Below are positions 3,895 to 46,565 of a stretch of DNA of 64,000 nucleotides, in pieces. Position numbers and translations under genes: made by a program. Each line of letters starts with the position of its first letter. Position 1 is the stretch's first letter. The stretch lies in contig JAUXAU010000002.1 of the NCBI GenBank assembly GCA_030619765.1, forward strand, positions 1,724-65,723. The letters run 5' to 3'. This stretch comes from Thermoplasmatota archaeon (lineage in GTDB: Archaea; Thermoplasmatota; E2; DHVEG-1). The notes beneath the pieces were generated by a model that saw only the letters and a program-made list of their open reading frames with translations, searched no databases and was not told the DNA's origin.

Positions 3895-3962
3895 AAAAAA
3901 GAAAATGCGTTAGAGGGATTATTTCTGCCTGTTATGGAATTAAAAAAAGGAAAAAGAGAGAA
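3895..3962 (-). repeat. conserved 3'-flank element (copy 1), immediately downstream of the 3977..5716 gene
   Basis: The reverse complement is about 90 percent identical over about 68 nt to 45841-45912: CTCTCTTTTTC.TTTTTTAATTCCATAA.AGGCAGAAATAA.CCCTCTAACGCATTTTCTTT. Confidence 0.8.
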
Positions 3963-3976
3963 GGTTTAGTGTAGGT

Positions 3977-6010: not shown

Positions 6011-6016
6011 AATTTA

Positions 6017-6061
6017 ATTTAAATGTTTTCCATGATATTCTTATTGCAACATCTGTAACAA
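6017..6061 (-). promoter_or_regulatory. promoter-like repeat module (copy gamma): TTGTTACAGATGTTGCAATAA..N..TTTAAAT
   Basis: Reverse complement TTGTTACAGATGTTGCAATAAGAATATCATGGAAAACATTTAAAT matches 44439-44483 and 44799-44843, with the same 38-39 nt spacing to the TATA-like TTAAAT. Confidence 0.5.
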
Positions 6062-21547: not shown

Positions 21548-21921
21548 TGGGAGAGATTAATTCTTCTTCATGATTCTCTTTCAACAATTATGTACATGAT
21601 GTAGGAAAATAACTGTGTGAGAATGATATTTCTATTCGTCTAGATTATTAATATCTTTGATTTAACAGTTTCTATATGTTTGATACATATCTATATATAT
21701 CTAATTATATCTAACATATATCTAATTAATTTTAACTTTCATAATTTTGACTGTGTTACTAATATATTAAACACTGTTACGTAATGTCTACTCCTATTAA
21801 ATCCCTTTTTTTACATTATTTCTTTAAATACTCTGCATAATTCTATATTTCAGCCGAAATATTTATAAATGAACACACAATATATTAAACCATACCGTTG
21901 AAAAACGGGGAGGAACAAAAA

Positions 21922-24900
21922 ATGAAGAAACAAAAGTTTTTATCTAGAAGAAAGCTGGTGAAGACAACGACTATTACTATGGCGTTACTTATTGCCGCTA
22001 CTCTTATTTCTGGTAGTGCAGTATCAGTAACAATGGTCGGTAATACAACGAATTTGAACGTAAAAAATACTAGCCCTCTTACAGAGTTTTCAGTGGCAAC
22101 CGAATGGTTGACAGCTGCAGAGTCAGCAACAAGTCAAGCCATGCAACCATTGCCTCTATCAATGTTAGACTGGTTACACTACGATGATGGTACCTGTGAG
22201 AACGCTCTTGGTTTAACGGCCGGGGGAGAACTAACTGAGGCTATAAGGTTAACACCGACCGAGCTTGCCGGATATGATGGCTTCGAGATTCAAAAGGTAA
22301 AAGTCATGCATGGTTGGCCAACTGGTACACCACAACCTGCTCATGATGGTTTTGTACGTATATGGGAAGCAGGCACAACAACAGAGCCTGGAGCACTTGC
22401 AAAAGAGCAAGCATTTTCCGCACCTGCAGGCAACGATTGGGTTGAGATAGACTTAGTGGATCCATACACAGTTGACGAGACCCAGGACGTTTGGGTTGGT
22501 GTAGCTTGGACTCATGGTGCCGGTGATTTTCCGTGTGGTTTTGATACAGACACCGTTACTGTTGACAAGGGTGGATTCCTTGTGTACCCTGGAGCTGCCT
22601 GGACGCAACTTAGCGCTATTGGTTATCCCGGAAACTGGAACCTTTGGGCCGGTTTGGAACCAGGAGGACCTGGCGGTGAGCATGATGTAGGTGTCCAAAG
22701 CATCAATGAGCCATCAAGTGGTCCTGCAGGAGTAATTACACCTGAAGTTACCGTAAAGAACTTTGGTAATAATTCAGAGACAACTGATGTGCAACTCATG
22801 ATTGGACAATTTGCACCTCCAGTTATTGTATGGTCATATGGTTTCGAAGATTGGACTGTTGAAGGCTTTACACACCCAGGATGGACAAATGAGAGATTAG
22901 TTGGAACAGATCCTGATTGCTATTGGCAAGGACATGACTCTGTACACTACATATATCCAGATGCTGACCCATATGAAGGAAGTGTTTGTGCACTTGTTGA
23001 CACCGGTATGATAACCAATTATGGAGAAACTAGAGCTTATATGAATACTCCATTTGACTTCTCAAGCTATGGAGCTGACGCGCTCGTATTAAGTGGTATG
23101 TTCCATAAGAGAGCGTATGGTGGAACGGCCCAAGCCGGAGAGATTCAAGTTCAGGTTTCACTAGATGGTAGCACTTGGACCACTGCAGGAACCATAGACA
23201 TGTATGATGCAGCTTATACCAATGGATTATGGCAAGAAGACTCAGTTGATTTGTCAGCCTATAAGGATGAGACCGCTGTTTACCTCGGATTTCTTGGAGT
23301 AGATGGAGGATACAGTGACATCTTAATGGATGATCTGAAATTAGGTACAGTTTCATTTGTAAGCGAATATGACCAGACTGTAACAGGTGTGACTGTTGGT
23401 GTTGGAGCAACCGTAGATGTAACGTTCCCAGACTGGACACCAGATGACTGGCAGGTATCAGAAAATGTTGATATCACCTACGAGGTTATAGCAACTACAT
23501 TACTTGCTGATGATGACCCAGGAAATGATCAAAAGACCAAATCAGTCACATTGAATTATCCTTACTTACATGACATAGCAGTTTTAAGTATTAACGATCC
23601 AACAAGTGGACCTGCTCAAACATTACCGGTAGAGGTAATCATCAAGAATGTCGGTCAATTCGATGAATGCTGTTACAAAACGAATGTACAGATAGGAGCG
23701 TTTGATTATGTTATAACCGGATTCTTCAGTGACTTTGAAGCAGATGACGGTGGATTAACTGTATCCGGCGGAGTCTGGGATTGGGGTGAACCAACCTCTG
23801 GACCAATGGGTGCATATTCAGGTACTAAACTCTGGGCAACCGTCCTTGGCGGGAACTACCCCACATATGCGAATTGTCAACTCGTAACCACTTCCATACC
23901 TGTTCCGGTTGATGGGGATCTCACCTTCTGGCATTGGTACGACATCGAAGCTTCTTATGATGGTGGTAACGTCAAGATATCCACAAACGGTGGAACATCC
24001 TGGACAGTGATTACCCCAATTGGCGGCTACACAGGTACCGCAAACAGCGCAAACCCACTGTACCCGGAACCCATATTCTGTGGACATGTTCAGGGGTACT
24101 GGGAAGAAGAAACCTTTGACCTTGTAGCCTATGAAGGCATGTCGGTTATGTTCCGGTTCGATTTCGGATCAGATGGTTCTGTCCAATATCCAGGATGGTA
24201 TATTGATGATGTCCTCGTTGGCGAAGTAACAGTTACCGTTATATCAGAATACGATGAAGATATATGTACAATCTTACTTGATCCTGGAGAAGAGGCAACA
24301 CTTACCTTCCCAGACTGGACACCAGATGCTCTAGCATTAGGAATTTCTGGTGGGATAAATTACGGCATAATAGCAGAACAACAACTGTCAGGTGATACAA
24401 ACCCAGCAAACGACCAAGTATCAGAAGGCATAACACTGGACTATTGGCATGATGTCAAGGTTGAAGATATAACATCACCTGCTGGAGATAACCGTGCTAT
24501 TTGGGATCTACAGTTCGAATTTGATGTAGCTGGAGCTAGCGGAGCTGCTGGTAATACTGGTGTTGAATGGGATGGAGATTATTTCTATTCCTGTCGATGG
24601 GCAAGTAACCTAATGCATCAATATACCGACACTGGTGCCATGCTTAAGGAGTTCTCTATACCTGGTGTTAGCGGTAGTCGTGATTTTGCATATAACGATG
24701 ATGACGGCTATATGTACAGTGGTGCAGCGGGAACTACGGTATGGGAATATGATGTTATTAGTGAAACGCTAATTAACAGTTATTCCTGGCCGGTTGCAGT
24801 TAGAGCTCTTGCATACGATGATATCGAGGATGCATTTTGGTGTAACAACTGGGGTAACGATATCACACTAGTAGATACATCTGGTACTATACTTTACACG

Positions 24901-41642: not shown

Positions 41643-41679
41643 TTTTCATTTTGACATTTTTACACGCTATATTTAAATA
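41643..41679 (+). promoter_or_regulatory. conserved 18-nt motif TTTTCATTTTGACATTTT plus TATA-like box (copy 1)
   Basis: Exact 18-mer at 41643-41660, then ..CACGCTA and TATTTAAATA. The ATG of the Zn-ribbon gene lies about 40 nt downstream. Confidence 0.45.
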
Positions 41680-42110: not shown

Positions 42111-42443
42111 ATGACTATGGCAGAAGAAACAACAAAAAAGGAAACCACTGAAGAAAGAAGAACAGATGAAAACGTAATATATGTTGGAAGCAAACCGCCA
42201 ATGAGCTATGTACTTGCTGTAGTAACTCAGTTTAATAGCGGTTCTGACGAGGTGGTTATAAAAGCTAGAGGCAGGGCGATAAGTACGGCGGTAGACACTG
42301 CAGAAATTGTGAGAAACAGATTTGTTACAGATGCAAAACTAAAAGAGATAAAAATTGGTACTGAGAGCATTACCAATGAAGAAGGTAGAACATCTAATGT
42401 ATCTACAATGGAAATATGCTTAACTAAAAAGACAAGCAAATAG
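42111..42443 (+). CDS. albA: Alba DNA/RNA-binding protein
   Basis: [51 protein letters not shown]. Start is probably the second ATG (42117), given the GAAGGAG spacing. Confidence 0.85.
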
Positions 42444-42501: not shown

Positions 42502-42960
42502 ATGAAAAAACAACTTTTGATACTTGGAATGGCTTTTCTGCTCTTGGATGCCGTGTTAAGTGGTTGTATTACTTCAATCGATGACAATAATAGTTACCAA
42601 AAATCTATAATTCTAGATGATGATCTCTTTCAAAATGCTTCACGAGACCAATATAAAATTATTAACATAGGAATTGAAGTAGACATATTAGAAATTAATG
42701 TGTCATATAGTGGAGGATGTGAGGAGCACGAATTTTCTCTTTTTGGATCGTCTTCTTTTAAGGAGAGTTTACCGGTTCAGATAAAAGTTGTACTTTCCCA
42801 TAATGATAACGATGATCCATGTGATGGAATTTGTTCTGAGGAACTGGCTTTTGATCTCTCACCGTTAAAAGAAAAATGGCAAGAGGCATATCAGCAAAAT
42901 TCAGGAACTATAATTATATGGCTTGAAGGTGTAGAAGAATCTTTATCCTATGAGTTTTAA
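42502..42960 (+). CDS. predicted lipoprotein, unknown function
   Basis: Signal with lipobox LSGC and several conserved-looking Cys. No motif recognised. Confidence 0.45.
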   Translation: MKKQLLILGMAFLLLDAVLSGCITSIDDNNSYQKSIILDDDLFQNASRDQYKIINIGIEVDILEINVSYSGGCEEHEFSLFGSSSFKESLPVQIKVVLSHNDNDDPCDGICSEELAFDLSPLKEKWQEAYQQNSGTIIIWLEGVEESLSYEF

Positions 42961-43115
42961 TTTCATAAGGTTAATGGCAATCTCGAAATGAAATCAGTAC
43001 CATAACGCTGTAGTATTTGTTCCTTATTTTATACTAAACATTTTTCTGCACCTTTTTATCCACTCCAAAACTCAAAACATTATCTTTATAAAACAAAGAA
43101 ATATACTGCTGTTAA

Positions 43116-43191
43116 ACGGGGGGTCTAATACTAAAGAAATGATTTTAAATAAAATATTTTGCATTTCTTCCCTCCCTCTAGACCCCTTTTT
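43116..43191 (+). ncRNA. candidate small RNA, copy A (nested hairpins, exposed CCCUCCCU, oligo-U end)
   Basis: TATA-like TTTATAAA at 43085-43092. Outer stem 43120-43127 GGGGTCTA pairs with 43179-43186 TAGACCCC. Inner stem 43134-43141 AAGAAATG pairs with 43162-43169 CATTTCTT. CCCTCCCT at 43170-43177, TTTTT at 43187-43191. Ends are predicted, not mapped. Confidence 0.35.
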
Positions 43192-43439
43192 ACAATATCT
43201 TTCTCGTAGGATATTTTTAAAGGATAATTACCAAACGTAATGTTTATAAATTACAATAAAATTACAATTATTGGTGAGGGGTGCATGTTCAGAAAATCTG
43301 TCTATTCTAGTAAACCTTACTTCTTTTTCTTTTCAGCATCTTTGCGTTTAGTGCCCGCCTCTCGCCTTCCTCCCTTTTTTCTTCTAAAATATATGGTAAA
43401 GACAAGAAGCAATAAGAAAGGCATAGTTACAGTGACATT

Positions 43440-43478
43440 TTTTCATTTTGACATTTTGGCACGGTAGGTAAATATAAC
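43440..43478 (+). promoter_or_regulatory. conserved 18-nt motif TTTTCATTTTGACATTTT plus TATA-like box (copy 2)
   Basis: Exact 18-mer at 43440-43457, preceded by a second GTGACATTT half-site. It is followed by ..CACGGTA and GGTAAATATAA. Confidence 0.45.
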
Positions 43479-43545
43479 ATTAATAACAAAGTATAACATG
43501 CCTAAACTTGCAAAATGGATGTTATGAAAATCTGCAGGGGACAAA

Positions 43546-43749
43546 ATGATTGAAAAAAAGGTAATAAGGGGCAGAAAAGAAAACGATCCAGAATGGATAA
43601 AAGACATAGCATTCTATGTAAAATCAGGGGAGGCAGACAAACACAAAAAGCAACTCCGAGAACTATATTTGGAATATACGCGAGAAGGGTTGAAACCAAA
43701 AGAAGCATGGGAAAAAGCAAAGAATGTCCTCGCTTGTTTTGGAAGGTAA
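43546..43749 (+). CDS. 67-aa hypothetical protein
   Basis: GGGGA RBS 4 nt upstream. Lys/Glu-rich helical sequence with a terminator hairpin downstream. The antisense ORFs in the track were judged spurious. Confidence 0.5.
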   Translation: MIEKKVIRGRKENDPEWIKDIAFYVKSGEADKHKKQLRELYLEYTREGLKPKEAWEKAKNVLACFGR

Positions 43750-43760
43750 TATGTCTTAAA

Positions 43761-43784
43761 CCTATGTTGAGATAGAAACATAGG
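43761..43784 (+). terminator. hairpin followed by T-run
   Basis: CCTATGTT-GAGATAGA-AACATAGG (8-bp stem), with TTTTTTT at 43799-43805. Confidence 0.45.
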
Positions 43785-43801
43785 GGGGTTAAAGACACTT
43801 T

Positions 43802-43840
43802 TTTTCATTTTGACATTTTACCACATTAAGTTTATATACA
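43802..43840 (+). promoter_or_regulatory. conserved 18-nt motif TTTTCATTTTGACATTTT plus TATA-like box (copy 3)
   Basis: Exact 18-mer at 43802-43819, then ..CACATTA and GTTTATATAC. Confidence 0.45.
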
Positions 43841-43902
43841 ATTATTGTCAGAAAATAACACGCTATGTGGTAGCATAGTAGAGATAAAAAGGAGAAAATC
43901 TA

Positions 43903-44172
43903 ATGAAAAAAATAGGAAAACCCTCGGGAAAAAAAATTGAAGAAAAAATCGATAAAGAATACGACTTTTTATTGGATGAGTCTACATTAAATGAAACAGA
44001 GGATGAAGACCACGAATATGTAAAAAAAGAAGTAATGAAAAAGAAATATGAATCTGCAGTAAAAAAAGTAGATGAGCTATTGGAGAAGCTTGAGCAAGAT
44101 AAAAAAGAAGAAAACCGATCCTCGGAAAAATACAAAGAAAATTACAAACTAGATATAGACATGATAGAATAA
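43903..44172 (+). CDS. 89-aa highly charged (Lys/Glu) hypothetical protein
   Basis: Good AAGGAG RBS and predicted coiled-coil-like composition. No homology recognised. Confidence 0.5.
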   Translation: MKKIGKPSGKKIEEKIDKEYDFLLDESTLNETEDEDHEYVKKEVMKKKYESAVKKVDELLEKLEQDKKEENRSSEKYKENYKLDIDMIE

Positions 44173-44405
44173 AATGGGTTATTAGAAAAGCTAAACGATA
44201 TACCTTTTCCCATTTGAGAGCAACTATGATAATCTGCTCTCACTCTAATATTTAAAATAATACAGGATTCCACCTATACATCTTACATTTTATTTAAATT
44301 TTCATTTAAGATAACTTCAGCAGTCCATCTAGCTGCGTTCCCAGATACAGTTGGACATTTATCAACATGAGCTCCCGCTTTTTCAAATTCTTCCATATTA
44401 CTGTA

Positions 44406-44484
44406 GAAATGAAATCAGTCCACCTACAATAATTGGATTTGTTACAGTTGTTGTAATAAAATATTATGAGGAATCCTTAAATAC
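44406..44484 (+). promoter_or_regulatory. promoter-like repeat module (copy alpha)
   Basis: GAAATGAAATCAGTCCAC...TTGTTACAGTTGTTGTAATAAAATATTATGAGGAATCCTTAAATA. Lies upstream of the 44542 small gene. Confidence 0.5.
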
Positions 44485-44541
44485 TAATCTTTAATCTACC
44501 TGATTTAAAGTTCTAATTGAACGAAAAGGAAAATTGTAAAA

Positions 44542-44682
44542 ATGTATGGAGAAAACAGAGAAATGCACAAAGTAACTTGTGCAGAATGCGGTAAGGAAAC
44601 AGAAGTTCCTTTCAAGCCAGATGGAACTAGACCTGTCTATTGTAAGGAATGTTTTCAGAAACGTAAACCAAAAAGATTTTAG
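44542..44682 (+). CDS. 46-aa CxxC-x17-CxxC zinc-binding small protein
   Basis: Below the ORF-track cutoff. MYGENREMHKVTCAECGKETEVPFKPDGTRPVYCKECFQKRKPKRF. Spacing and the PF.P....PVYC..C context match the widespread CxxC-x17-CxxC small-protein family as I recall it. Confidence 0.6.
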   Translation: MYGENREMHKVTCAECGKETEVPFKPDGTRPVYCKECFQKRKPKRF

Positions 44683-44773
44683 ATAAAATTTTCGAAATCA
44701 CCTAGATTTTAACAATCTTTATTTAAATATCTTTCTTTTTTTTTTTAATTCTAAATTCCATAGAGTAATTGTG

Positions 44774-44844
44774 GAGATGGAATCAGTCCACTAAACTTTT
44801 GTTACAGATGTTGCAATAAATATAATGAGAAAGATATTTAAATG
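44774..44844 (+). promoter_or_regulatory. promoter-like repeat module (copy beta)
   Basis: GAGATGGAATCAGTCCAC...TTGTTACAGATGTTGCAATAAATATAATGAGAAAGATATTTAAAT. Lies upstream of the 44895 gene. Confidence 0.5.
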
Positions 44845-44894
44845 AGATAATTATATCTTATACAGGAAATTTTTAATTAAGGGAGGAACAAATA

Positions 44895-45833
44895 ATGAAA
44901 AAGAAAATATTAGGTATTTTTGTATGTATGCTGTTAATTGCAACTGCTTTACCTGCAGTAGGGACAATGACTGAACAAGATTATAATTCAAGTAATCAAA
45001 ACATTGGTGACCGTGGTGGAATGTTTAGACAGCTCCCATCTCCACCAGTTGATCCCATGCCATATGGTTGGATAAGCGATTCACAGATGGGGTGGCAGGT
45101 TTATGAAGATTTCTGGGAGGTTTCCAGTCCAATCTGTGACATTCACTGGTGGGGTGGGACTCCCATATGGATGAATGAAACCTGGTATCCTTGTAATCCT
45201 GAGGGTATGACCTTCGACATTATTTTCTTTGAGGATGAAGATGGTATGCCTGGTAACGTGTCTTGTTCATATGATGACATTTCGCCGATAATAACTCCAA
45301 CTGGTATTATGTATGATTATCCTGATGAGTTCCCTGAAGGTCCCTTTGAATTATATTATTTTGAGGCAGATCTCAATCCATGTTGCAATCTGTCTAACGG
45401 GTGGGTGTCGATAATCAAAAAATATAGTCCCAACGACTGTACATTCGGGTGGCATGAATCTCCCGATGGTAACGACAAGATAATCCAAAATATTAATTGG
45501 CGCTCTACAGATGTTGCTTTTATATTAACTGATGGTGAAGAGCCTGACCTTGAAATAAATATCAAGAGTGGACTTGGTGCTACTATAGAAGTTACGAACA
45601 GCGGAAATGAAACATTAACCGGAATACCTGTTGACGTTGTAGTATATGGTGGTCTACTCAGCAAGATTAATGTACATGTTAGAGAAACCATAAGTCTTGA
45701 CCCTGATGAAACAAAACCAGTAGGTACAGGGATATTCCTTGGACTTGGGAAAATAGCAATAGGTGTAATTGCAGATGATGTAGTTGAATATCATAGTGGA
45801 TTGCAATTATTCATTTTCACCATAGTGCAATAA
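44895..45833 (+). CDS. secreted protein, unknown function, with C-terminal beta-sandwich shared with the S8 protease
   Basis: AAGGGAGGAA RBS and signal peptide. C-terminal IKSGLGATIEVTNSGNETLTGIPVDVVVYGGLL...LGLGKIAIGV parallels GGLFKVSAKIINKGGAEATSINWSITLEGGIILLG...LGFGNTKITI of the 9416 gene. Confidence 0.6.
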   Translation: MKKKILGIFVCMLLIATALPAVGTMTEQDYNSSNQNIGDRGGMFRQLPSPPVDPMPYGWISDSQMGWQVYEDFWEVSSPICDIHWWGGTPIWMNETWYPCNPEGMTFDIIFFEDEDGMPGNVSCSYDDISPIITPTGIMYDYPDEFPEGPFELYYFEADLNPCCNLSNGWVSIIKKYSPNDCTFGWHESPDGNDKIIQNINWRSTDVAFILTDGEEPDLEINIKSGLGATIEVTNSGNETLTGIPVDVVVYGGLLSKINVHVRETISLDPDETKPVGTGIFLGLGKIAIGVIADDVVEYHSGLQLFIFTIVQ

Positions 45834-45840
45834 TTAATTC

Positions 45841-45912
45841 CTCTCTCTTTTTCTCTTTTTTAATTCCATAATAGGCAGAAATAACCCTCTAACGCATTTT
45901 CTTTCTTTTTTG
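45841..45912 (+). repeat. conserved 3'-flank element (copy 2)
   Basis: See 3895-3962. Same orientation relative to the upstream gene and starts 8 nt after the stop codon. Confidence 0.8.
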
Positions 45913-46050
45913 GTGTAATACGATTAATCTACTCAAAAGTGCGTTAAAACTCATTTACGAGTATATTTTTACATTGATGTATATTTTTGTACATTGTGTG
46001 AGATCACACAACAGTTACCTTTATTAACCAAAGAAATATAACACCCGCCA

Positions 46051-46113
46051 GAGGGGGTCAAACCTTTTGGAAAAGATTTTATTAATTCCTTTCCTCCCTC
46101 CCTGACCCCTTTT
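46051..46113 (+). ncRNA. candidate small RNA, copy B
   Basis: TATA-like TTTATTAA at 46020-46027. Outer stem 46054-46060 GGGGTCA pairs with 46103-46109 TGACCCC. Inner stem 46069-46073 GGAAA pairs with 46090-46094 TTTCC. TCCCTCCCT at 46095-46103, TTTT at 46110-46113. Confidence 0.35.
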
Positions 46114-46220
46114 ACAATACCCTCTTTCTACATCATATTGCTTAGAATCATAGGTTTTCGATGAAAAGACTAAGATAACAGGGTAAAAGTGGGGGGAGTA
46201 AATGTTTTCAACTATTGAAA

Positions 46221-46565
46221 TTATTTCTTTAGAGGTATCACACAAATAAACTTCAATATCTCCGTTCCAGTATTCACAAACTGATGCCATTCCATAGATG
46301 GAACGAGGACTACATCACCAACCATTAGTTTTTCTTCCTTCTTCTCCTTATCTATTAGGATACCTTCTCCTTCAAGTATGAACATTTCTTGTTCATTCCA
46401 ATGCTGTTCAAAAGGGGTATATCCACCTTTTTCAATCTCAAAATATCTCATAGCGAAGTTTTCAGCACCATCTTTTTCATTAATTAACCATCGCAACTTC
46501 ACCTTCTTTGCTCCTTCTACATTGGGAGTTTCTAATTTTACATCTGAAAAATGCATGTGTTTCAT
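46221..46565 (-). CDS. cupin-domain protein
   Basis: GGYTPFEQHWNEQEMFILEGEG...VLVPSMEWHQFVNTG fits the cupin two-motif pattern. Confidence 0.6.
   Translation of the reverse strand: MKHMHFSDVKLETPNVEGAKKVKLRWLINEKDGAENFAMRYFEIEKGGYTPFEQHWNEQEMFILEGEGILIDKEKKEEKLMVGDVVLVPSMEWHQFVNTGTEILKFICVIPLKK

Follow-up and report, generated by a model that had tools for sequence, protein, structure and literature searches.

Genomic setting and homology of the two copies

In this study we describe two related intergenic elements, copies A and B, in a 64-kb stretch of archaeal DNA (the window, meaning the whole stretch analysed: 64,000 nucleotides (nt) of contig JAUXAU010000002.1), which a first-pass annotation had singled out as a candidate family of small RNA (sRNA) genes. 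The window has about 35% GC and carries genes for Alba (42111-42443), MetRS, a DnaG-type primase, an MCM-like protein and methylmalonyl-CoA mutase. Among named proteins, the nearest belong to "Thermoplasmatales archaeon" metagenome-assembled genomes, including SG8-52-4, and the sequence points to a probable Thermoplasmatales-like host from a sediment lineage of the Marine Benthic Group D (MBG-D) type. The organism occurs in SRR30888626, SRR34846494, ERZ25074855 and samples named ZHAN22-2. Copy A (43084-43205) lies 125 nt downstream of a gene for a lipoprotein-like protein of 152 amino acids (aa). Copy B (46019-46132) is flanked by the plus-strand gene for a 312-aa secreted protein (44895-45833) and, on its other side, by the 3' end of a cupin gene that converges on it from the minus strand (46221-46565).

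The two copies had been proposed to be homologous over their full length, and this is borne out: all of the blocks listed earlier are found and the MAFFT alignment has 78% column identity. The composite motif TCCCTCCCT..GACCCC occurs only in copies A and B and in none of 100 shuffles, and CCCTCCCT by itself is found three times against 0.9 expected. The annotation had also proposed a search for additional copies with an Infernal covariance model. Such a model, built from the orthologs of copy A only, recovers copy B (46048-46119, 37.2 bits, E=3.9e-5), but on both strands of the window it finds no copy beyond B.

The polarity of the unit is fixed, running from a TATA-like box through a G-rich arm, an inner hairpin, a C/U-rich tract, a C-rich arm and a T-run to ACAATA (Table 1). 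The promoter-like box (TTTATAAA in A, TTTATTAA in B), the G-run and the oligo-T after the last stem are all present as first described, with the box starting 33 nt ahead of the G-run in both copies and the T-run being T5 in A and T4 in B. The tail CCCCTTTT(T)ACAATA is common to A, B and a third type, C, which is described below, and it reads ATAATA in the orthologs of the L046 type (related loci are numbered here with the prefix L). The TATA-like box of copy A is kept in L046, L054 and L059, and has one T>C change in L057.

The two transfer RNA (tRNA) genes of the window can be used to place the start of the predicted transcripts. Their TATA boxes start 39-40 nt before the mature 5' end, which, with an ordinary short tRNA leader, suggests that transcription starts about 31 nt downstream of where the TATA box begins. 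With that spacing the transcripts of A and B would begin about 2 nt before the G-run, so that the whole outer helix would lie within the RNA. Upstream of the units, T-runs follow the stop codons of the preceding genes (T5 at 43041-43045 and 43053-57 before A; T5/T6 at about 45848-45861 before B). Archaeal RNA polymerase terminates at oligo-T alone, and these T-runs between the upstream genes and the units therefore make it probable that the units are insulated and need a promoter of their own. Copies B and C are directed towards the 3' end of the convergent cupin gene and so cannot be 5' leaders; for B there is no gene downstream to lead into. The open reading frame (ORF) at 46024..46290 that overlaps the cupin gene had been suspected to be spurious; it exists as a minus-strand ORF without a Pfam match, and its exact sequence is absent from the protein collection.

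Two further features were noted around the promoters. The motif AAAACATT, which stands upstream of the TATA box in A, in C and in both tRNA genes, was considered as a meaningful element and rejected because it is too frequent in the genome (28 found, 17 expected). At 45968-46013 (plus strand), upstream of the TATA-like box of copy B, there is a direct repeat TATATTTTT(G)TACATTG(A/T)TG together with a palindrome TTGTGTGAGATCACACAA. The TTTTGTACATTGT part of this region is also found upstream of unit C in L059. The region may be a regulator-binding site.

Table 1. Positions of the predicted parts of copies A and B, of the neighbouring unit and of the variable stretch that holds copy A.
Feature	Position	Strand	Basis or remark
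Copy A, TATA-like box TTTATAAAA	43085-43093	+	Starts 33 nt 5' of the G-run; preceded by AAAACATT
Copy A, predicted transcript, starting just 5' of the G-run and including all of T5	43116-43191	+	Ends inferred from TATA spacing and T-run
Copy A, outer stem, 5' arm GGGGGGTCTA	43118-43127	+	Fold and structural alignment
Copy A, inner stem, 5' arm AAGAAATG	43134-43141	+	Fold and structural alignment
Copy A, inner stem, 3' arm CATTTCTT	43162-43169	+	Fold and structural alignment
Copy A, C/U-rich internal loop CCCTCCCTC, resembling an anti-Shine-Dalgarno sequence	43170-43178	+	Unpaired in the minimum-free-energy fold
Copy A, outer stem, 3' arm TAGACCCCTT	43179-43188	+	Fold and structural alignment
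Copy A, T5 run and conserved tail ACAATA	43187-43197	+	Sequence comparison
Copy B, TATA-like box TTTATTAA	46020-46027	+	Starts 33 nt 5' of the G-run at 46053
Copy B, predicted transcript and hairpin	46050-46113	+	Fold; covariance-model match
Copy B, outer stem	46050-46060 / 46103-46113	+	Fold
Copy B, inner stem	46069-46073 / 46090-46094	+	Fold
Copy B, C/U loop TCCCTCCC	46095-46102	+	Fold
Copy B, T4 run	46110-46113	+	Fold
Copy B, conserved tail ACAATACCCTCTTTCTACA	46114-46132	+	Alignment
Stretch of about 410 nt with copy A and the next unit	42990-43400		Alignment of filled and empty sites; present in relatives at 96-100% Alba identity, lacking in L044 and L056 (93-94%)
Second sRNA-like unit, directly after copy A	43244-43380	+	TATA to T6; within the stretch of about 410 nt
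Second unit, TATA TTTATAAA	43244-43251	+	
Second unit, closing helix	43273-43283 / 43356-43366	+	
Second unit, C/U-rich tail CCTTCCTCCC	43365-43374	+	
Second unit, T6 run	43375-43380	+	

Folding and base pairing

Both copies fold into a G/C-clamped outer helix around an inner hairpin, with the stems that had been claimed for them: GGGGTCTA/TAGACCCC and AAGAAATG/CATTTCTT in A, GGGGTCA/TGACCCC and GGAAA/TTTCC in B. Shuffled controls had been proposed for these folds, and both copies are better than their shuffles (A, -20.0 kcal/mol, z -3.12; B, -22.0 kcal/mol, z -2.75). The minus-strand folds are weaker, with z-scores of -1.85 for A and -1.98 for B. When all three types are taken, the plus-strand z-scores range from -2.75 to -4.11, and those of the minus strand are -1.85, -1.98 and -3.09.

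For the analysis of pairing, a structural alignment of six distinct sequences was made by hand and fitted to the structure, and the pairs were counted by a script. Standard pairs are found in 95 of the 100 pair cells and both-sided changes in seven pairs, all of which fall between types A, B and C, although this count leans towards structure because the alignment between the types was fitted to it. The outer helix does not vary among the true orthologs of A and is therefore uninformative; their inner helix has one change from A-U to G.U. One substitution speaks for the structure. In L059 the T-run reads TCTTT; the last T of the 3' outer arm has become C, so that a terminal G.U pair turns into G-C. 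One apparent compensatory change was rejected. In L046, AAAGAAATG is replaced by AAGGAAATG and CATTTCTT by CATTCCTT, but these positions are not partners in the register of copy A, they yield a G.U and an A.C, and in the minimum-free-energy fold the register is shifted.

Presence and absence among relatives

Orthologs of copy A are found in L046, L047, L048 and L057, whose Alba is 96-97% identical to that of the window, and in L059. A nearly identical sequence occurs in L054, from a Joint Genome Institute (JGI) metagenome, and L045 has the left flank. Copy A is absent from L044 (CP070724.1, a 2.3-Mb Thermoplasmatales archaeon genome, Alba 93%) and from L056 (Alba 94%), where 29-50 nt of unrelated sequence occupy the empty sites. 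The filled and empty sites differ by a stretch of about 410 nt, at whose edges we found neither a target-site duplication nor direct repeats. This pattern of presence and absence suggests a young and dispensable unit that has been passed on vertically since it arose, and it does not look like the insertion of a miniature inverted-repeat transposable element (MITE).

Wider searches did not extend the family, and the expectation of members beyond the narrow clade was not supported by any of the database scans. In 185,579 species genomes, a collection that excludes the window's own genome, the strict pattern TCCCTCCCTN{0,6}GACCCCTTT gave 39 matches from unrelated taxa, none of them with a hairpin or promoter, which we regard as chance. 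The likewise strict pattern GGGGGTC..GATTTTA..GACCCCTT gave seven matches in the JGI metagenomes, of which only L054 is real. There were no matches in the viral contigs, and the stretch of about 410 nt is unmatched in the phage and plasmid collections. About 120 kb of related loci contain no copies other than the orthologs, and 20 kb of L044 contain none.

The left edge of the indel coincides with one copy of a short repeated motif. GARATGRAATCAGT occurs four times in the window (36893, 42985, 44406 and 44774; 0.22 expected), always intergenic and on the plus strand, and the copy at 42985 is the one at the edge. The copies around 44.4-44.8 kb are followed by TCCAC, with which they could form short hairpins. 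Exact matches of the motif among the fetched loci come from near-identical strains only.

A third type, a neighbouring unit and look-alikes

A third type of the unit, C, is found at L059:1396-1530 (minus strand), at the position equivalent to that of B in L059 and L060. The interval lies between an 89-aa gene and the 3' end of the cupin gene and shares the flanks TTTTGTACATTGT and ATTGCTTAGRATCATAGG with the B locus. Its sequence is strongly diverged, but the layout is that of A and B: TTTTTAATAAA is followed about 35 nt on by GGGGA, and there are an inner helix GGAATTA/TAATTCC, the C/U tract TCCGTTCCTC, TCCCC and then TTTTACAATATCT. The fold has -22.1 kcal/mol and z -3.70, and the other strand z -3.09. 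The model of copy A orthologs sees type C only weakly (17.7 bits, E 0.5). The tail CCCCTTTTACAATAT, which is identical over 17 nt, and UUAAUUCCU, which C has in common with B, nevertheless argue for its homology.

Two other sequences resemble these units. The model also reported L063:3807-3906 (26 bits, E=0.005), which we rejected as a member since it is a near-perfect long palindrome without a C/U tract or a T-run and folds equally on both strands. This palindrome, 97 nt in length (L063:3806-3902) with the outer stem GGGTCTAGT/ACTAGACCC, lies between two minus-strand genes of a more distant relative and folds with -31.8 kcal/mol (z -5.5 and -6.1 on the two strands). Downstream of C, at about 1255-1330 of L059 (minus strand), there is an inverted repeat of a G-rich and a C/U-rich arm, GGAGGAAGGG ... 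CCCTTCCTTC, followed by ATTATTCCTCCTG, which may be a further unit of similar style.

Directly after copy A, and within the same variable stretch, lies a second sRNA-like unit at 43244-43380, laid out in the manner of copy A. It ends in a single-stranded CCUUCCUCCC tail ahead of T6. Its fold in the window has z -2.75; the L046 copy, when folded by itself, does not surpass its shuffles (z +0.59). The 11-bp closing helix GGUGAGGGGUG/CGCCUCUCGCC shows four one-sided changes, GC<->GU or UG<->UA, and no broken pair in the RNAalifold consensus of four orthologs. Changes that are all G.U-compatible would be compatible solely with pairing in a plus-strand RNA. The second unit lends mild support to the view that there is a small cluster of sRNA genes with C/U tracts.

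The C/U-rich tract and ribosome-binding sites

The C/U motif CCCUCCCU between the stems had been called invariant and complementary to ribosome-binding sites used by many genes. The invariance does not hold: the motif is identical between copies A and B only, and the orthologs read UCCUUCCU, UCCUCCCU and ACCUCCCU. The longer tracts are CCCUCCCUC in the window, UCCUUCCUC in L046 and L047, UCCUCCCUC in L048 and L057, ACCUCCCUC in L059, UCCCUCCC in B and UCCGUUCCUC in C, and the loop CCCTCCCTC of copy A becomes TCCTTCCTC, TCCTCCCTC or ACCTCCCTC in its orthologs. The tract consists of pyrimidines only, except for an A in L059 and a G in C, and it usually contains CCUCC. In the A and B types it is mostly unpaired, with a mean probability of being unpaired of 0.43-0.89.

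The abundance of matching ribosome-binding sites was overstated, as a Shine-Dalgarno (SD) core is found in 13 of the 51 start regions of the window. The two examples cited for it do exist, AAGGGAGGAA before 44895 and GGGGAGG before 21922. The duplex energy predicted with the C/U tract is on average -7.7 kcal/mol for translation-start regions and -5.4 kcal/mol for background windows. The best predicted partners are these same two genes, 21922 with A (-17.3 kcal/mol) and 44895 with B (-16.1 kcal/mol), each duplex being in the lowest 1% or so of background windows. Copy B matches AGGGAGGAA of 44895 perfectly over 9 nt. The two starts share a near-identical strong ribosome-binding context, GGGAGGAACAAA(A/T)AATGAA (21905-21924 and 44877-44897, plus strand), and the genes encode an InhA-like MAM-domain protein of about 1400 aa (21922) and the 312-aa secreted protein (44895).

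Interpretation and alternative explanations

We see an even chance that A and B are paralogs in a lineage-restricted family of plus-strand sRNA genes with products of about 65-80 nt. We infer the transcription, its strand, the RNA ends and any action on ribosome-binding sites from the sequence. An archaeal TATA box about 33 nt upstream would direct a start about 2 nt before the G-run, and the RNA would fold into a G/C-clamped outer helix around a variable inner hairpin. A C/U-rich tract of the CCUCC type on the 3' side, between the helices, would be left largely unpaired, and the run of four or five T would end transcription. The most likely activity of such an RNA would be the pairing of its C/U tract with the purine-rich SD sequence of a subset of messenger RNAs (mRNAs), masking the ribosome-binding site. 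The best candidate targets in the window would be the secreted-protein genes at 21922 and 44895, both with GGGAGGAACAAA(A/T)AATG. We regard a function of this kind as plausible, though its overall probability is low. A fuller scenario, in which A, B, C and perhaps the unit at 43244-43380 form a recently evolved anti-SD sRNA family of sediment Thermoplasmatota (MBG-D-like) that throttles in trans a few strongly SD-led mRNAs for secreted proteases and surface proteins, is in our opinion rather unlikely.

Several observations weigh against the sRNA reading or its proposed function. Only three sequence types exist, confined to contigs whose Alba is at least 96% identical to that of the window, and the scans of large collections gave only chance matches and near-identical A copies. 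The claim of compensatory stem changes stands in part: both-sided changes are seen between the paralog types, where they rest on a hand-made, structure-fitted alignment, but none occurs among the true orthologs of A. In these orthologs the inner stem is moreover broken at A24.C53 (L046, L048, L057) and C21.U56 (L059). In L046 the minimum-free-energy fold has a shifted register, with half of the tract UCCUUCCU buried, the tract of type C lies partly within helices, and the sequence of the tract varies. Because so few genes have an SD core, any anti-SD role would be limited to a few mRNAs. The conservation of ACAATA 3' of the T-run is unexplained by a transcript that ends at the T-run, and a perfect hairpin is strand-symmetric, so it may have a role at the DNA level. 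Taken together, the architecture is kept across deep divergence, yet there is no clean covariation among orthologs.

The narrow distribution and the imperfect orthologous conservation make a neutral or DNA-level repeat the main alternative. The units would then be a duplicated intergenic module without an RNA function of its own, a palindrome bearing promoter and terminator that is drifting or acts on the DNA, for example as an inverted repeat bound by a protein. Such a module would fit the dispensability of the whole stretch of about 410 nt in L044 and L056, the pair-breaking substitutions and altered C/U tract in the orthologs, the folding of the hairpin on both strands and a window that is full of other repeated intergenic modules. 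We consider it unlikely on balance, since three types whose stem and loop sequences have almost wholly diverged keep the nested helices and the polarity with the G arm 5' and the C arm 3', together with the TATA spacing and the tail, all of which neutral drift should erase, and the plus-strand z-scores are consistently better. Another reading, a MITE or repetitive extragenic palindromic (REP)-like element with the outer stem as terminal inverted repeats, draws on the presence and absence among close relatives, the inverted repeat GGGGGTC...GACCCC and the occurrence of two copies within 3 kb. It appears very improbable: the indel of about 410 nt is far larger than the unit, lacks a target-site duplication and has unrelated filler in the empty sites, and the conserved TATA box and tail lie outside the inverted repeat. 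The 64 kb of the window also hold just two copies, while 20 kb of L044 and the other loci hold none, the viral contigs and the phage and plasmid collections are without a match, and the orthologous copies have diverged in place.

Two further possibilities concern the neighbouring or opposite transcripts. A plus-strand gene precedes each of the units A, B and C at a distance of 125-350 nt, the hairpin followed by a T-run resembles a terminator, and the U-run can pair with purines that stand directly 5' of the G-run. The units could thus be 3'-end elements of the upstream co-directional gene, either a terminator or a stability hairpin with a U-tract in the 3' untranslated region. This is improbable in our judgement, because the earlier T-runs before A (43041-43057) and B should already terminate these transcripts and because the unit has its own well-placed, conserved TATA box; the sites were also passed over by a simple terminator scan, for which their loop is too long. 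On the minus strand, AGGGAGGG/GGAGG could act as an SD sequence with an ATG 5-7 nt later, so that the locus would encode a small protein whose translation the hairpin possibly controls. Copy A has GGGAGGGAAGAAATG followed by a 30-codon ORF and C has GGAGGAATTAAATG followed by a 29-codon ORF, with the ATG at a homologous column. We give this little credence, as copy B lacks a start codon, with ATT in the corresponding column, and the G-run of 6 nt in the window and L059 is 5 nt in L046, L048 and L057, which shifts the frame after codon 15 and leaves C-terminal halves that differ (…DPPFNSSIFLCFIKIMF vs …DPHLTAVYFFAL). The A and C peptides are dissimilar past their first seven residues (M-x-N-x-x-[FL]-K), with no Pfam match for either, a conserved TATA box upstream on the minus strand is missing in B and C, and no gene is called at the site in any related contig.

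If the fuller anti-SD scenario is right, no riboregulator family would have been described before in this uncultured lineage, and the units would be a case of sRNA birth and duplication within a species-level clade. To our knowledge, hardly any regulatory sRNAs have been described in archaea other than a handful of cultured ones (Methanosarcina, Haloferax, Sulfolobus, Thermococcales), and we know of none described for sediment archaea of the MBG-D or Thermoprofundales type. The genes, if transcribed, would be very young and lineage-specific, being present at an Alba identity of at least 96% and absent at 93-94%. Their target rule would be simple and predictable, namely strong SD sites. The practical value would be modest, given an uncultured organism, a tiny family and a mechanism that is already known.

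Other repeated modules in the window

Our inspection of the window also revealed other repeated intergenic modules. TTTTCATTTTGACATTTT followed by a TATA-like box stands upstream of small genes (74, 67 and 89 aa) at 41643, 43440, 43802 and, weakly, 49084 (plus strand); it is kept in L044, L046 and L056 and is probably a shared regulator-binding site with a promoter. A 53-nt T-rich element after the 312-aa gene (45835-45887) is 87% complementary to 3916-3968, just 3' of a minus-strand gene for a 579-aa arylsulfotransferase-like protein, and a related stretch lies at 44730-44764. With equal orientation relative to both genes, the element makes up a shared 3'-end or terminator module. Finally, a module TTGTTACAG(A/T)TGTTG(C/T)AATAAA..ATGAG..ATATTTAAAT is found upstream of several genes (44439-44470 and 44799-44848 on the plus strand, 6012-6061 on the minus strand). 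The same promoter-region module, TTGTTACAG/ATATTTAAAT, also adjoins unit C at about 1340-1385 of L059 (minus strand).

Comparison with known systems

The proposal that the family is novel agrees with our searches of Rfam. At gathering thresholds Rfam finds only the two tRNAs in the whole window, and at E<=10 it finds in 42950-46300 only a chance mir-754 match elsewhere than at the units. The units recall archaeal H/ACA guide RNAs in their single hairpin with a large internal loop and in the single-stranded A[C/U]A a few nt past the lower stem. We rejected this assignment because the ACA or AUA is separated from the upper-stem base by 19 nt (B) to 22 nt (A) and not by 14-16, because A, B and C have no K-turn or K-loop and no tandem sheared G.A in the upper stem or loop, and because there is no Rfam H/ACA match at E<=10. 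A box C/D sRNA was rejected as well, since RUGAUGA is found in no copy and CUGA only in B, inside a stem. With bacterial REP elements and archaeal MITEs the units share the form of short, intergenic, imperfect palindromes whose presence varies among close relatives. They differ in their low copy number, the lack of a target-site duplication, conserved sequence outside the palindrome and stems that are not conserved between the types.

The closest functional parallels are found among sRNAs that pair with ribosome-binding sites. In Staphylococcus aureus, RNAIII and the Rsa-type sRNAs carry C-rich, unpaired UCCC motifs complementary to SD sequences of the GGAGG type, and an unpaired C-rich motif complementary to SD is what the present units would have in common with them. 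The S. aureus RNAs are bacterial and unrelated in sequence, with their motifs in apical loops and with Rho-independent terminators, whereas the units described here have an archaeal TATA box and oligo-T. Among archaea, sRNA154 (through its loop 2) and sRNA41 of Methanosarcina mazei mask ribosome-binding sites (PMC5867862). There is no homology in sequence or structure between these and our units, in which the C/U tract lies in a 3' internal loop and not apically; the hosts belong to a Thermoplasmatota-like phylum here and to the Methanosarcinales there. The likeness lies in the proposed mode of action: the M. mazei RNAs are intergenic and have stable stem-loops with an exposed anti-ribosome-binding-site sequence that is proposed to block the initiation of translation (PMC5867862), and the units described here would act likewise.

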